From IMG/VR virus record IMGVR_UViG_2684622669_000018, positions 1 to 7,999 of that record: a stretch of DNA of 7,999 nt; one strand, given 5' to 3'. Both the position numbers and the translations under genes were made by a program. Below, in pieces: positions 3,332 through 7,999 of this stretch. The DNA comes from a virus (Duplodnaviria > Heunggongvirae > Uroviricota > Caudoviricetes). Under the pieces are notes generated by a model, which searched no databases, was not told the origin of the DNA, and was given only the letters and a program-made list of their open reading frames with translations. Position 1 is the first letter of the stretch; each line of letters starts with the position of its first letter.

Positions 3332-3991
3332 TCACTCTCCTTTGATGCGAATGTCAGCGGCGCGCTCGGCTTCACTTTGTTCCCAAAACCACTTGTGAAG
3401 CTCCATGAGCTTTTCGTCAATCGGTGCATATTTGCGATTAAAGTAGGCCTGAGCATCTTTCTCAGATTCGTCCGGCAATTCGCCTGGGCCAAACAGTGTG
3501 TTATAAATCCATGCCAGTCCGCTTTTAGCGTCGCCAGTTGCCTGCCATTCGATAATCGCAGCCTGCATGACCAGAATGTTTTTCCCGATTAACAGGTCCA
3601 GCTCTTTGAACCGGTTGCGGATGTATGCATTCTCGCTTTGTAATTTTGCGTTGCGCTTCTCTGCGGCTTCCAGCTCAACACGCAGCTTCCCTACAGTTAG
3701 CGCAATTTCCTCGTTCTCCTGATCGCGGCGTTTTATGTATTGCTGGTTTCTTTCCCGTTCATCCAGCAGTGCCTGCACTACTTCAGGGTTGAAAGCTGCG
3801 ATATAACGAGCATTAGCAGCAGCTTTTTTCTGTCCATCAAACCCAGGCCATTTGATAACATCTTCGCATCGTTTATCACCTGGCGTATGCACCGCATACG
3901 TACCAGTACCCGGCGAAATAAATGCGACCCATTCGCCCTGTGTTGCCTGTTTTGCTAACTCACGCAGTGCCTGATAGTCAATCTTGCTCAC
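3332..3991 (-). CDS. Ead/Ea22-like family phage protein (219 aa from GTG start)
   Basis: The ORF-track start at 4183 is a GTG with no SD, inside the Lar-like gene. GTG at 3991..3989 is preceded by AAGGAGG with 6-nt spacing. The N-terminal domain (IDYQALRELAKQATQGEWVAF...ARYIAAFNPEVVQALLDERE) and the coiled-coil middle resemble the Ead/Ea22 family as recalled. TGA at 3334..3332. Confidence 0.65.
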   Translation of the reverse strand: MSKIDYQALRELAKQATQGEWVAFISPGTGTYAVHTPGDKRCEDVIKWPGFDGQKKAAANARYIAAFNPEVVQALLDERERNQQYIKRRDQENEEIALTVGKLRVELEAAEKRNAKLQSENAYIRNRFKELDLLIGKNILVMQAAIIEWQATGDAKSGLAWIYNTLFGPGELPDESEKDAQAYFNRKYAPIDEKLMELHKWFWEQSEAERAADIRIKGE

Positions 3992-4211
3992 TGTTTGCCT
4001 CCTTTGCTCGCTGATTCCACTCTGCTCTAACCTCTGAATAAAAAATCGCGCAGTCATTTCCAGGCGCTGCATATTTGCTACCAGATTGAGCGCGACACGT
4101 ACCGCATCGAACGAAATAGAATCGACCGCCAGAGCCATATTCAGGGTGATCTGCTTCGCTGGCAACGTGCGCTGCACCGCCACAGAATGGACATGGTAGT
4201 AGGTTGCTCAT
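3978..4211 (-). CDS. lar: Lar-family restriction-alleviation protein (zinc ribbon, 77 aa)
   Basis: ATG at 4211..4209 preceded by GGGAG; TGA at 3980..3978. Protein [12 protein letters not shown]...RCGTC carries the CPFCG plus CxxC four-cysteine ribbon typical of Lar/RalR-like proteins. The start overlaps the stop of the 186-aa gene as ATGA (4211..4208). The longer ORF-track version (from 4244) is an in-frame 5' extension. Confidence 0.75.
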   Translation of the reverse strand: MSNLLPCPFCGGAAHVASEADHPEYGSGGRFYFVRCGTCRAQSGSKYAAPGNDCAIFYSEVRAEWNQRAKEANSEQD

Positions 4212-4768
4212 GAATGCACTCCCTTGTGAAGCTGTTCCGCACAATGCAGCAGGGCGTCAGTCGCCTCTTTCACCGTAACGCAGTCGCCATCGTCCAGCCC
4301 GGACACCGACGCGTGCTTAACGAACGCCGCGTAAAGGTCATCAAACGCCTTAGCCCGGACTTCAGCCAGGAAAGCATCGGTGGCTGGGGTGTCTGATTGC
4401 ATAGACTTTGCGCGATAATCATTCCACCCTCTTGCATATATGGGATTAACTTGCACCCCATCTTTTACGCAATATGCCTGCCCTCCACGGTTGATAACCT
4501 TGATTTCGTCCATAGCGCCAGACTTCAGCCCCGCATTCTCCGCCGCCAGCGCCGAAAACTTCTCGTGTGCCAACTTAACAGCCGCATCAGCCTGCTTAAT
4601 TGACTCAATCGCTTTCTGGTGGTCTTCGGACAGAGCCGAAATCTTGGCCTCCGCTTCAGCAAATTTACGCACCAGATATTCAGCGTTTGTTTCGTTAACC
4701 TTTAAATCTCGTGGGATGCATTGACCTTTCAGAAAACCATCCATCTCAATTAGTGACATTTGTTTCAT
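4208..4768 (-). CDS. Hypothetical protein (186 aa), predicted coiled-coil N-terminal half
   Basis: ATG at 4768..4766 (GGAG about 9 nt upstream); TGA at 4210..4208. The N-terminal half is Ala/Glu/Lys-rich and heptad-like. No family recognised. Translationally coupled to the Lar-like gene. Confidence 0.65.
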
Positions 4769-5271: not shown

Positions 5272-5754
5272 TTATTTGATAAGAAGTGAAGGTTTCCCAA
5301 CTTTGAGTTGAGCGCCGGGGATATTTATTCCTGCTTTTAGTTGGTGTTTGATTGCCAACTTGTCGGCTTTAATTGTTGTTTCAAACTCAACGTATTCAGG
5401 AGGAAGGGCGCTTGAGTCGATGATTTCTACAGTTTCTGACGGTTTGCGGATTGTTACCTGGTGAATACCTGCTCGCATCTTTTTCTTGCCAACCATTTCA
5501 AGCGATGACGCTATATATGATTTGATGCTGTCAATCTTATTTTGAATTACTGCGGCTCGTTCATTCAGTGACTTTGCCTCTTCCTTGAGGCGTTCAGCAT
5601 AACCAGATTCATTTTTAATAATGGCGAGAAGTTGCTCTATTTTATCGGTAAATTCTCCTTCCATGCCTTCTATTGTGTCAGCAATCATCTCTGGTTCTAA
5701 ATCTGAATCCATCAATTTTGCGTATTCATTGGCTATTTCATATAGTTTGCTCAC
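5272..5754 (-). CDS. Siphovirus Gp157-family protein (about 160 aa)
   Basis: (V)SKLYEIANEYAKLMD...IADTIEGMEGEF...EMVGKKKMRAGIHQVTIRK...VEIIDSSALPPEY fits the Gp157 family usually found beside phage annealing proteins. The ORF-track start is TTG at 5760; GTG at 5754 has GGAGG 6 nt upstream and is preferred. The 5' end overlaps the recT 3' end. TAA at 5274..5272. Confidence 0.8.
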   Translation of the reverse strand: MSKLYEIANEYAKLMDSDLEPEMIADTIEGMEGEFTDKIEQLLAIIKNESGYAERLKEEAKSLNERAAVIQNKIDSIKSYIASSLEMVGKKKMRAGIHQVTIRKPSETVEIIDSSALPPEYVEFETTIKADKLAIKHQLKAGINIPGAQLKVGKPSLLIK

Positions 5755-6649
5755 TGGCAACCTCCAGTTTCGCTTTGCATTCCATGTAAATGGCTTGTAC
5801 GTTCTGCTGCAATTTCATTCCAGATGTCAGGCGATATGCTTCTGCAAAATATCGCTTCAAATCATCCATGTTTTCAGCCTGAGCCATTTCATCACAAAGA
5901 AGTTGTGCTTTTTCCATAATTTCCTGCTGTCGTTTCCGTTCATCTTCGCGGATATCTTCCTCTGATTTGTGCGGCATAACTGGTTCAGTCCACACACCTT
6001 CTTCTTCGTTTAGTACGTGAATAGCACTATCAAGACGTGATGCCTTAGGCCAATACTTGCTTGCACGCTTTACGACCGTCTTTCGCGCCATCTCATTCCA
6101 GTGATTTACCCATGGTCCTTTATCGCTGAATGCTGCCTTGCTTGTTTTCCTTACAGCCTCAATTTCAGCCAGACTCATCTCTTCCGTTAGATAATCACCT
6201 GCTGGCGTCTTAACTGTGCAGTAAACGCCAACAATATCACCACGATCACCGAAGGCGTTGTATTTATGGGTTGGTGCTTTATCAAGCCCGTTTGACTCAT
6301 AGGTATCGTTAGCATGAACAAGTTTTGCCTGACCCCATGAGATAACACCAGACTCCATTGCAATATGGAGCAATCCCATATAACTGATATCAAGGCACAC
6401 CATGCCGTCGCGCGGAACCAGATAAGCCAGTTTGCTAGCCGGGTTTAAGGTGATACCGATCGCCGCAACATTGATGATGGCGTTCTGTGCGCTGGTTGGA
6501 TTTGCCAGTGCTGTTTTAGCCAGGTAATCATTTTTCTGGAAATACTGAATTGCAAACTGGCTTTCCTTAGCCCATGTCACCGTCTGTTCAGTCAATGCTC
6601 CGCAGAATAACTGCTCTTGCTGTTTAACGAATTCAACGATATTGCTCAT
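5738..6649 (-). CDS. recT: RecT-family single-strand annealing protein (303 aa)
   Basis: ATG at 6649..6647 preceded by GGAG with 7-nt spacing; TGA at 5740..5738. The conserved block GPWVNHWNEMARKTVVKRASKYWP matches the RecT/Redbeta-superfamily core as recalled from Rac RecT (GPWVTHWEEMAKKT...). The start overlaps the stop of the upstream 103-aa gene as ATGA. Confidence 0.88.
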   Translation of the reverse strand: MSNIVEFVKQQEQLFCGALTEQTVTWAKESQFAIQYFQKNDYLAKTALANPTSAQNAIINVAAIGITLNPASKLAYLVPRDGMVCLDISYMGLLHIAMESGVISWGQAKLVHANDTYESNGLDKAPTHKYNAFGDRGDIVGVYCTVKTPAGDYLTEEMSLAEIEAVRKTSKAAFSDKGPWVNHWNEMARKTVVKRASKYWPKASRLDSAIHVLNEEEGVWTEPVMPHKSEEDIREDERKRQQEIMEKAQLLCDEMAQAENMDDLKRYFAEAYRLTSGMKLQQNVQAIYMECKAKLEVASEQTI

Positions 6650-6957: not shown

Positions 6958-7042
6958 CTTTCTCCTGTTCTTTGTGCTGATTGAGCATTTCTTTCATCTG
7001 ACGAATAAATTCTTCGTCTGACCAGTTATCTGTAAAACTCAT
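6932..7042 (-). CDS. Possible small ORF (36 aa, acidic C-terminus); speculative
   Basis: ATG at 7042..7040 overlaps the kil-like TGA (7041..7039) as ATGA. Translates to MSFTDNWSDEEFIRQMKEMLNQHKEQEKDDDSDSER. The SD is weak (AGGAA abutting the ATG). It overlaps the first 26 nt of the 103-aa gene. Not in the ORF track because of its size. Confidence 0.25.
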   Translation of the reverse strand: MSFTDNWSDEEFIRQMKEMLNQHKEQEKDDDSDSER

Positions 7043-7191
7043 TTCCTGCGATACCACGGAAGGTTGATAGCTGATTTCATCGCTTTATTTGCTTCAAGCC
7101 ACATTTTTGAATCACCAATAAATCTGGCTATTACTGCTTTGTTCTGTGCTGCACGAAGCATCTGGTGATTGATGGCTATTTCATTGCGCAT
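7039..7191 (-). CDS. kil: Kil-like host-killing / FtsZ-inhibitor small protein (50 aa)
   Basis: ATG at 7191..7189 preceded by GGAGG with 4-nt spacing. Translates to MRNEIAINHQMLRAAQNKAVIARFIGDSKMWLEANKAMKSAINLPWYRRK. The FIGD-x-KM core and its position overlapping the cIII 3' end by 16 nt mirror lambda kil as recalled. Missed by the ORF track (under 60 aa). Confidence 0.5.
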   Translation of the reverse strand: MRNEIAINHQMLRAAQNKAVIARFIGDSKMWLEANKAMKSAINLPWYRRK

Positions 7192-7310
7192 AACGCCTCC
7201 AGTTGTTTCTTTGCTGCTCTGATTAATTGTTTAACTCGGCGTGATAATTCAGATTCGTGCGGGTAGAAAGCGGACATGACGCCGCTACCCGCGAGCTGAA
7301 AGTGCATCAT
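7176..7310 (-). CDS. cIII: CIII-like small protein (44 aa), putative FtsH inhibitor
   Basis: ATGATG at 7310..7305 preceded by AAGGAG with 6-nt spacing; TAG at 7178..7176. MMHFQLAGSGVMSAFYPHESELSRRVKQLIRAAKKQLEAL resembles lambda CIII (M..AIAG....PSESLLERITRKL...) as recalled, and lies immediately upstream of kil. The ORF-track ORF 7176..7415 is a 5' over-extension. Confidence 0.5.
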   Translation of the reverse strand: MMHFQLAGSGVMSAFYPHESELSRRVKQLIRAAKKQLEALCAMK

Positions 7311-7372
7311 GGGTAACTCCTTATATTTGATTGCATAACGAAAACGCCTCGAGTGAAGCGTTATTGGTATGC

Positions 7373-7400
7373 ATATAAAAAAGCCCTCACACTGGAGGGC
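7373..7400 (-). terminator. Intrinsic terminator (tL1-like position, upstream of cIII)
   Basis: On the minus-strand transcript: GCCCUC-cagugu-GAGGGC (plus 7383..7400) followed directly by UUUUUUAUAU (plus 7373..7382). Perfect 6-bp stem. Confidence 0.5.
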
Positions 7401-7462
7401 AAAGAAGATTTCCAATAATCAGAACAAGTCGGCTCCTGTTTAGTTACGAGCGACATTGCTCC

Positions 7463-7490
7463 GTGTATTCACTCGTTGGAATGAATACAC
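7463..7490. repeat. Perfect 9-bp inverted repeat with 10-nt spacer
   Basis: gtgtattca (7463..7471) and tgaatacac (7482..7490) are exact reverse complements, with spacer ctcgttggaa. No U-run follows on either strand, so this is not a terminator. Candidate protein-binding site or RNA stem-loop. Confidence 0.4.
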
Positions 7491-7517
7491 AGTGCAGTGT
7501 TTATTCTGTTGTTTGTG

Positions 7518-7545
7518 CTAAAAATAAAGGCCGACTATGCGGCCT
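7518..7545 (-). terminator. Intrinsic terminator immediately after the membrane-protein gene
   Basis: Plus strand aggccg-actatg-cggcct (7528..7545) begins 5 nt after the TGA at 7552..7550. On the minus-strand transcript the hairpin is followed by UUAUUUUUAG (plus 7518..7527). Confidence 0.5.
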
Positions 7546-7549
7546 AAAA

Positions 7550-7999
7550 TCACTTAACCAATGATGCTGCATATTCGATAAGGTAAAGCTTTGGAGCCAG
7601 CCAAATTTTCAACCAAGTCATATTGGTTACTGCACTAATAATAAAAATCCCCCACAGAATCAAAACTCCAACCAATGGAATGATAAGAAGATTAATATCA
7701 CCTTTGCTATCCCAAACCATTGTCGGCCTGTATTTGGGATTTCCCTTCTCCCATGAATATCCTTCATCACCGATTTTACCTGTCTCAACTCTTTGGCACT
7801 GCTTCTTCATAAACCAGAAAACCAGTGGGATTGTTAGAATGGCTATTAATGTTTTAATCAGACTGTCAACCATATTCCATATTAGCAACTGATGAACAAC
7901 ATCAGGAATCTGTGCCTGGCTAAATGAAACAGCCGCGTCTATTCCATCACTGGCTTTTTGCAGTAGTTCTACGAGAATCTTGTTTGCTTGTTCTTCCAT
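7550..7999 (-). CDS. Small membrane protein with two predicted TM helices (149 aa or longer; N-terminus may lie beyond the window); candidate superinfection-exclusion or moron product
   Basis: The ORF runs to the window edge; the ATG at 7999..7997 may or may not be the true start. Hydrophobic segments LIKTLIAILTIPLVFWFM and LLIIPLVGVLILWGIFIISAV. Visibly AT-rich compared with the rest of the window. Followed by its own terminator. Confidence 0.65.
   Translation of the reverse strand: MEEQANKILVELLQKASDGIDAAVSFSQAQIPDVVHQLLIWNMVDSLIKTLIAILTIPLVFWFMKKQCQRVETGKIGDEGYSWEKGNPKYRPTMVWDSKGDINLLIIPLVGVLILWGIFIISAVTNMTWLKIWLAPKLYLIEYAASLVK

Follow-up and report, generated by a model that had tools for sequence, protein, structure and literature searches.

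The window, the whole 7,999-nt stretch of DNA analysed here, corresponds to the left arm of a lambdoid prophage in which all genes lie on the minus strand, in the order int, xis, a run of small ea-type genes, RecT, kil, cIII and orf149 (Table 1). The exact 149-aa orf149 protein is recorded in E. coli and E. albertii assemblies, and the locus is probably the accessory segment next to N in the early-left (PL) operon of a lambdoid prophage from one of these two species. In comparison with lambda, the window is devoid of ea10 and orf149 occupies the place of ral.

Table 1. Positions of genes, RNA elements and hairpins in the window
Feature	Position	Strand	Basis
int	1-1074	minus	
RecT	5738-6649	minus	
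kil	7039-7191	minus	Pfam Lambda_Kil, 1.7e-20
cIII, downstream neighbour of orf149	7176..7313	minus	Pfam PF08134 cIII, E 2.2e-30
Third terminator-like hairpin, cIII leader, AACGCTTCACTCGAGGCGTT + TTCGTTAT	7333..7362	minus	Pattern scan; near-identity with lambda
Lambda tL2a homolog, PreS terminator hairpin GCCCTC-CAGTGT-GAGGGC + U6	7373..7400	minus	Pattern scan
Ortholog of lambda sRNA PreS/LPR1	7377..7461	minus	Lambda primers and probes mapped on the window; 3' end at tL2a
PreS seed region UGUUCUGAUUAUUGGAA, removed in the lambda lpr1-delta-seed mutant	7410..7426	minus	Gap between the P970/P971 homology arms
14-bp hairpin ending at the first PreS base	7461..7492	minus	MFE and centroid fold of 7552-7335(-)
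Short intrinsic-terminator-like hairpin AGGCCG-CATAGT-CGGCCT + TTATTTTT, directly after the orf149 stop	7518..7545	minus	Pattern scan
orf149, 149 codons, two-transmembrane protein, phrog_3054 (Sf6 gene 34 family)	7550..7999	minus	ATG-to-stop ORF

A previous reading of the window, made from the sequence only, had placed the true start of orf149 to the right of the contig. The reading frame is, instead, already complete at position 7999: an identical 450-nt CDS is annotated in phages Gally and HF4s, and GAGGTGAGAT directly precedes the ATG in contigs 100% identical to the window. A start beyond the window end is thus ruled out by these CDS annotations together with the window-identical contigs. 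In addition, a strong Shine-Dalgarno sequence (GAGGTGA) lies 5-6 nt before the orf149 ATG in all relatives.

The gene had also been described as much more AT-rich than its neighbours. The AT-richness stands, in a modest form, since the GC content of orf149 is 39.1% with respect to a window mean of 46.0% and falls within the lowest 1.4% of 450-nt windows. The contrast with the surrounding genes does not: kil (41.2%), orf41 (38.1%), orf103 (41.7%) and the intergenic stretch (40.7%) have similar values, and cIII (48.6%) is the sole neighbour clearly above orf149.

Among 52 distinct 149-codon alleles, all of which preserve the reading frame, dN/dS amounts to 0.08 in the N-terminal region, 0.26 in the first transmembrane segment (TM1), 0.27 in the loop, 0.81 in the second transmembrane segment (TM2) and 0.11 in the C-terminal region. 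Since the ratio stays between 0.08 and 0.27 in four of the five regions, orf149 is clearly a functional gene under purifying selection, with TM2 unusually free to vary. The idea that orf149 is a non-functional frame, arisen by chance or decaying within an AT-rich spacer, would be in keeping with the lack of Pfam, NCBIfam and PDB matches; it is, however, contradicted by the frame preservation and low dN/dS just described, by the conservation of the strong Shine-Dalgarno sequence and by the size of the protein family, which spans many phage groups and comprises 1855 clusters at 50% identity at E <= 1e-3 (562 at E <= 1e-10). These conservation data effectively refute it, and we consider it extremely improbable.

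Hairpins and the PreS block downstream of orf149

A pattern scan over 1.2 kb detected three terminator-like sites on the minus strand (7545-7528, 7400-7383 and 7362-7343), to be compared with 0.7 +/- 1.0 expected in shuffled sequence. The first consists of a stem (7545-7528) followed by a T-tract (7527-7518), in line with the earlier suggestion that orf149 ends in its own terminator. This hairpin is kept in most close relatives, with a stem mismatch in some of them, and in more distant relatives its position is taken by terminator hairpins unrelated to it; the HK639 record annotates terminators after its orf149 homolog as well. The second site, also composed of a stem (7400-7383) and a T-tract (7382-7373), is likewise terminator-like, as had been proposed. 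Finally, the third (7362-7343) matches the cIII-leader hairpin of lambda (lambda locus L004 683-722), and its position is presumably that of lambda tL2b.

The arrangement of these elements differs from the one initially put forward, in which two terminators bracketed the gene and the second of them lay just before the cIII Shine-Dalgarno sequence as an edge of the cassette. All three hairpins are downstream of orf149, which is therefore not bracketed by terminators; both sites reported in the sequence-only reading sit 3' of the gene, and the segment that they do bracket is a 117-nt spacer. Furthermore, the third hairpin intervenes between the second terminator and the cIII Shine-Dalgarno sequence. 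As to the cassette edge, the hairpin concerned corresponds to lambda tL2a, in which the small RNA PreS ends, because oligonucleotides designed on lambda PreS place this RNA at 7461-7377(-) in the window. Consistently, the Sf6 record bears at the aligned position the annotation 'terminator; homology to phage lambda; tL2A', due to Casjens, and the adjoining stretch is labelled 'bsq4; boundary sequence'.

In lambda, the interval between ral and ea10 encodes an Hfq-dependent sRNA, LPR1, renamed PreS, of about 88 nt and processed to about 68 nt, whose 3' end is tL2a, which is detected only in the lytic cycle and which activates dnaN translation (10.1101/2024.10.31.621285, 2024 preprint). Positions 7377-7535 of the window are nearly identical to lambda 33926-34085, within the ral-ea10 intergenic region, and the identity of the PreS block to lambda reaches 97.2% over 143 nt; the same block is nearly identical in Sf6, Gally and HF4s. 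[quoted passage not shown] The seed of PreS in the window is identical to the lambda seed, and so is the sequence from the 5' end of the RNA through the seed and the terminator stem. The orientation of PreS within the PL operon is also the same in both, and the GC-rich hairpin and poly-U 3' end corresponding to tL2a are found on the PL-transcribed strand. There are two differences between them: the terminator stem is followed by GAUUUUUU in lambda and by UUUUUU in the window, and lambda PreS sits between ral and ea10, whereas in the window the cIII leader follows PreS directly. An Rfam scan of 7300-7999 gave no match, PreS being evidently absent from Rfam 15.

The region 7552-7335(-) folds far better than its shuffled counterparts (z = -5.4), and its predicted structure includes the 14-bp hairpin that abuts the PreS 5' end. 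The sequence of this hairpin is the same as in lambda, given that the P969 homology arm matches 7462-7509 exactly, and a possible role for it is that of a processing or stability element. Since no promoter was seen by eye before the PreS 5' end, PreS would be processed from the PL transcript, the cut presumably taking place at the foot of the 14-bp hairpin.

Taken together, PreS, tL2a and the cIII-leader hairpin are already known lambda features. The gain is one of annotation: the conserved two-terminator spacer found ahead of cIII across hundreds of lambdoid prophages corresponds to the PreS gene with its terminator tL2a.

Operon context and cassette character of orf149

Three contigs (L094, L095 and L097), which share 100% identity with the window across 6450 nt, extend the sequence rightward and reveal the native surroundings of the gene. 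The order in L095 is a cI-like repressor, three co-oriented genes, a strong terminator, the operator/PL region, a boxB of the P22 type (GCGCTGACAAAGCGC), N (127 aa), a 58-nt spacer and orf149, which is thus the second gene of the PL operon, on the same strand as N. The gap between N and orf149 is also 58 nt in the TB354 prophage, and in HF4s the N stop codon lies 8 nt before the Shine-Dalgarno region of orf149. In HK639, the homolog is the second gene after a putL-like RNA and two annotated terminators come after it.

Scanning of the window-identical contigs yielded no promoter-like or terminator-like site between N and orf149. Particularly, neither the 58-nt spacer nor the 3' portion of N contained a sigma-70-like site, and no promoter was found upstream of the homolog in HF4s, bearing in mind that a consensus promoter scan can miss a weak or unusual promoter, for instance inside N. 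With N on the same strand and so close upstream, and with no promoter-like site between the two genes, the earlier claim that orf149 has its own promoter and is expressed in the lysogen is not sustained.

As judged from the anatomy of the locus, transcription would start at PL, proceed through the P22-type nutL boxB and N and, after 58 nt, enter orf149. The PL transcript would then meet the orf149 terminator, tL2a and the cIII-leader hairpin, beyond which lie cIII, kil and the recombination genes. N-modified polymerase is expected to read through the three hairpins, and the orf149 terminator, a weak one, would act like tL2a only on RNA polymerase unmodified by N. The gene anatomy thus suggests that orf149 is an early PL gene, silent in the repressed prophage, and its expression upon induction or during lytic growth via N antitermination appears more likely than expression in the prophage.

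As regards its insertion into the operon, ral is directly followed by PreS in lambda, whereas in 26 relatives the order is ral, orf149 and PreS (in some followed by ea10), and the PreS block directly follows orf149 in 74 of 80 close relatives among IMG/VR viral contigs. The gene is delimited by short repeated boundary sequences, CCACTTATTTGAGGTGAnATATG at its 5' side and the hairpin plus TTTATTTTT at its 3' side, and the ral-like gene that neighbours it in Gally is flanked by the same boundary types. Beyond the close relatives, an intrinsic terminator is located right after the stop codon of the family gene in about 16 of 36 diverse viral contigs, and unrelated terminators occupy this position also in HK639, Oslo, Citrobacter K1M and Vibrio 120E34-1. 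In the latter phage, the homolog stands alone and inverted between tail-completion and head-closure genes. The neighbours across the diverse contigs include HNH endonucleases, terminase, portal, spanin, methyltransferases, tail chaperones, RecT and N; no conserved partner gene emerged among 46 neighbours from 36 diverse contigs, and no tandem copies of the family were present in the loci examined. Because of its unrelated neighbours, its varied positions and its own terminators, the family behaves as a mobile single-gene cassette without a fixed partner.

These features bear on the possibility of orf149 being a moron that is driven by a promoter of its own in the repressed prophage and shields the lysogen through superinfection exclusion or abortive infection. 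Such a role would be in accordance with an AT-rich cassette that is extra with respect to lambda and ends in its own terminator, with the scatter of the family over genome positions that bear no relation to one another, in one case in inverted orientation amid structural genes, and with the location of the gene in the N-to-cIII interval, the site of sieB in lambda and in phage Oslo. Moreover, in approximately 40% of the close relatives a ral-like gene ends in a terminator-like hairpin about 45 nt upstream of orf149; were a promoter to follow this hairpin, the arrangement would be compatible with orf149 as a transcription unit of its own. Against this proposal, however, the native upstream region presents no promoter-like site and same-strand N lies 58 nt away (8 nt in HF4s). 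PADLOC-DB v2 defence HMMs returned 0 families at E <= 1 for orf149, and similarity to SieB was not found either by BLASTP against lambda SieB (E 0.51) or by hhalign against Oslo SieB (probability 0.2%). In addition, a homolog coexists with SieB in Oslo, and in the prophage studied here it is another gene, a PADLOC candidate, that fills the rexAB-like slot behind cI. The family is present, furthermore, in N4-like Schitoviridae, which are strictly virulent phages and not known to form lysogens. On balance, protection of the lysogen by an autonomously expressed orf149 is unlikely, and the exclusion or abortive-infection determinant proposed from the letters of the window was not borne out by the SieB and PADLOC comparisons or by the distribution of the family.

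The phrog_3054 family and the possible function of orf149

The orf149 protein matches the phrog_3054 HMM with an E value of 4.8e-63, its residues 1-149 being aligned to profile positions 1-137 of 137, and 42 of the 42 members of the alignment match phrog_3054 as well. This family is annotated as 'unknown function', and the best name given by any source is 'phage transmembrane protein'. The 90%-identity cluster of orf149 itself gathers 554 member sequences. The family occurs in temperate P22-like and lambda-like phages and in N4-like Schitoviridae, for instance in Ithacavirus SP076, where the homolog lies between RNA polymerase subunits and dUTPase, and it extends to environmental phages of Vibrio, Pseudomonas (Bjorn) and Rheinheimera and to Klebsiella phages.

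Pfam, NCBIfam and PADLOC scans of the 149-aa protein gave no match, in agreement with the previous failure to relate it to a known protein by eye. A Pfam scan of 42 relatives produced scattered sub-threshold membrane-protein matches only, and PDB sequences, searched with a profile, returned nothing beyond GPCR noise (E about 1). Foldseek found 0 PDB matches and, in BFVD, family members only; overall, the structure searches recovered either family members or generic helical hairpins. In the literature on Sf6 gene 34/gp34 and on membrane or exclusion genes of early-left operons, no functional study was found.

The closest named counterpart, the Sf6 gene 34 protein, is encoded at the same position of the early-left operon, upstream of the tL2a/'bsq4' block. 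Sf6 gp34 and orf149 are 50% identical, and both have two transmembrane segments. Their N-terminal 42 and C-terminal 23 residues are nearly identical, whereas the two proteins diverge in the centre (TM1, loop and TM2), where orf149 has 9 additional residues, which gives the pair a mosaic character.

The two transmembrane helices proposed earlier were confirmed as hydrophobic segments at about 44-64 and 102-124, and two such segments are present in 142 of 149 family members. Conservation is concentrated in the N-terminal 41 and C-terminal 22 residues, and TM1, the loop and TM2 vary. The conserved motifs M-N/E-E-Q ... F-x-Q-A-Q-x-P-D-V-x-x-Q-L-L-x-W, at the N terminus, and W-L-x-I-W-x-A-P-K-x-x-L-x-E-Y-A-A, at the C terminus, are both present in orf149. 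The N tail is acidic, with averages of 2.3 positive and 6.1 negative charges across 142 members, and the number of K/R within 8 residues is 2.4 after TM1 versus 0.5 before it. With the positive-inside rule as the sole basis, both conserved termini, consisting of an N-terminal helix and an amphipathic C-terminal helix, are probably periplasmic and the K/R-rich loop cytoplasmic. Of two AF2 models, with pLDDT of 63 and 74, the better one (149 sequences; pTM 0.49, moderate confidence) predicts a continuous 67-residue helix (2-68), TM2 at 106-125 and two short C-terminal helices.

The presence of the family in N4-like phages and the place of orf149 in an early operon point to the infected cell, and not the lysogen, as the setting in which the protein works, and the mobility of the family and the absence of a partner speak in favour of an activity that is accessory and self-sufficient. 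In this regard, orf149 may be a stand-alone inner-membrane protein that targets the infected cell's envelope for the benefit of the phage, and our best guess is that it would hinder the entry of further phage DNA. We hold both proposals with low confidence; an envelope-directed early function is what we favour, with a DNA-entry block as the leading candidate.

A different possibility is that orf149 serves the lytic programme of the phage itself, for example by anchoring replication or transcription complexes, by influencing membrane potential or lysis timing in an antiholin-like manner, or by inhibiting a host membrane protein. Several phages do encode the homolog in early operons beside replication, recombination or RNA polymerase genes: it comes after the RNA polymerase subunits in SP076 and directly after an annotated DNA polymerase III beta subunit in K1M. 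Similarly, in lambdoid phages orf149 is directly upstream of PreS, which boosts dnaN, and the conserved terminal helices are suggestive of a conserved partner. Nevertheless, the 36 diverse contigs share no conserved neighbour, and many lambdoid phages, lambda among them, are without orf149, so that its function is not a core one. Neither holins nor any other Pfam family matched orf149, and among the 42 relatives a single one matched Phage_holin_3_6, with an E value of 0.02 that falls well short of the threshold; in addition, the gene sits in the early-left operon and not in a lysis cassette. A dedicated task in the lytic programme therefore seems quite improbable.

Returning to the envelope-directed function that we favour, it may tentatively be extended to the family as a whole. 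It is conceivable, though we give this broader picture limited credence, that phrog_3054 constitutes a very widespread and novel class of self-contained, single-gene membrane effectors of temperate and virulent phages of Gammaproteobacteria, in which the periplasmic terminal helices would be the active parts and the fast-evolving TM2 would tune specificity, with early deployment from PL beside PreS in the lambdoid members. Blocking of secondary DNA entry or disabling of an envelope-based host function are examples of the activities that such effectors might have.

In terms of significance, orf149 is an accessory cassette in the lambdoid N-to-cIII interval that belongs to a catalogued but unstudied family. 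This family is very large, is found in temperate and N4-like phages, is without a Pfam entry and displays a distinctive conservation pattern. Our results overturn nothing known and open no long-standing question, and they make of orf149 an inexpensive and clearly delimited subject for expression and deletion work.

With respect to known systems, morons provide the first term of comparison, being extra genes that are independently expressed by means of a promoter and a terminator (epsilon34 paper, PMC2629481). orf149 shares with lambdoid morons the condition of an extra gene, its own terminator, a lower GC content and a family spread over many unrelated positions. Unlike them, it has shown no promoter and stands in frame-to-frame operon continuity with N. 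Hence, of the moron-like insertion proposed in the sequence-only reading, the additional gene with respect to lambda, the terminator and the AT-richness hold, and the promoter of its own was not found.

The second comparison is with the SieB proteins of lambda and P22, which are, like orf149, small phage membrane proteins encoded in the N-to-cIII neighbourhood. The sieB gene has its own promoter and, in lambda and Oslo, occupies the opposite strand, whereas orf149 is on the strand of N. T4 Imm, P22 SieA and HK97 gp15 are further small phage membrane exclusion proteins, and orf149 resembles them in being a small phage-encoded membrane protein.

Boundary sequences of the orf149 cassette

The same short linkers recur beside different genes of the N-cIII interval, the stretch of the PL operon that holds orf149 and the sRNA PreS, both in phage Gally (L001 3684-3760 and 3990-4010) and in the regions upstream of orf149 in close IMG/VR relatives (L010-L089). 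In both sources, the recurring 5' boundary sequence is TTATTTGAGGTGAnATATG, and the 3' boundary consists of a hairpin followed by TTTATTTTT; boundaries of the two types are present at a ral-like gene as well as at orf149. This distribution looks as if the linkers were sites of cassette exchange by recombination.

In two of these IMG/VR relatives, an orf149-type terminator and approximately the first 30 nt of the PreS block lie just upstream of orf149, where they are joined to the 5' boundary. This suggests that a gene sharing the 3' end of orf149 lies upstream, or that the two once stood in tandem; the fetched loci contained no further copy of the orf149 family (phrog_3054).

Within orf149 itself, the second transmembrane helix (codons 102-124, window 7628-7696) is almost neutral (dN/dS 0.81) and the termini are under strong constraint (dN/dS 0.08 and 0.11), all values coming from allele pairs pooled without phylogenetic correction.

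PreS and the family's neighbors

A 14-bp hairpin with the same sequence in lambda borders PreS (see table) and may guide its processing out of the PL transcript; the parts of the PreS preprint (10.1101/2024.10.31.621285) that were consulted hold no mention of this hairpin. According to that preprint, PreS raises host DnaN. In lambdoid phages, the family gene lies directly upstream of PreS. In the siphoviruses Citrobacter phage K1M (L008 2962-3866) and Salmonella phage STGO-35-1 (hit H59), the short gene directly before the family gene is annotated as 'DNA polymerase III beta subunit'. These two DnaN-related adjacencies may be a coincidence.

Coordinates of features in the window and in contig L095, which extends beyond its right end
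Feature	Location	Strand	Remark
14-bp hairpin	window 7461-7492	(-)	end coincides exactly with the mapped PreS 5' end
88-aa ORF	window 3978-4244	(-)	corresponds to the gene at L094 9789-10022, Pfam label Lar_restr_allev
283-aa Ead/Ea22-like ORF	window 3332-4183		start overlapped by the 88-aa ORF
113-aa DUF3024 gene	L095 3589-3930		beyond the right end of the window, some 2.1-2.4 kb from position 7999

Candidate restriction-alleviation and defence genes

Because the counterpart of the 88-aa ORF in the identical contig L094 is labelled Lar_restr_allev, the prophage has a candidate Lar/Ral-type restriction-alleviation gene, far from the N-cIII interval. In L095, this ORF and the Ead/Ea22-like one are called as a single gene. 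At window 3834-3883(-), Rfam gives a low-scoring hit to flpD RNA (22.1 bits at E 0.22, with the gathering score at 40) that is probably due to chance.

The sequence-only reading had proposed orf149 as a candidate exclusion or abortive-infection determinant expressed in the lysogen. If the prophage expresses a defence function, the position after the cI-like repressor is a more plausible site for it than orf149. Directly after the repressor gene, in a rexAB-like position, stands the gene for the 113-aa DUF3024 protein, which hits PDC-S43, one of PADLOC's candidate defence families, at 7e-42. Behind this gene come two more ORFs in the same orientation (162 and 206 aa), then a strong terminator.
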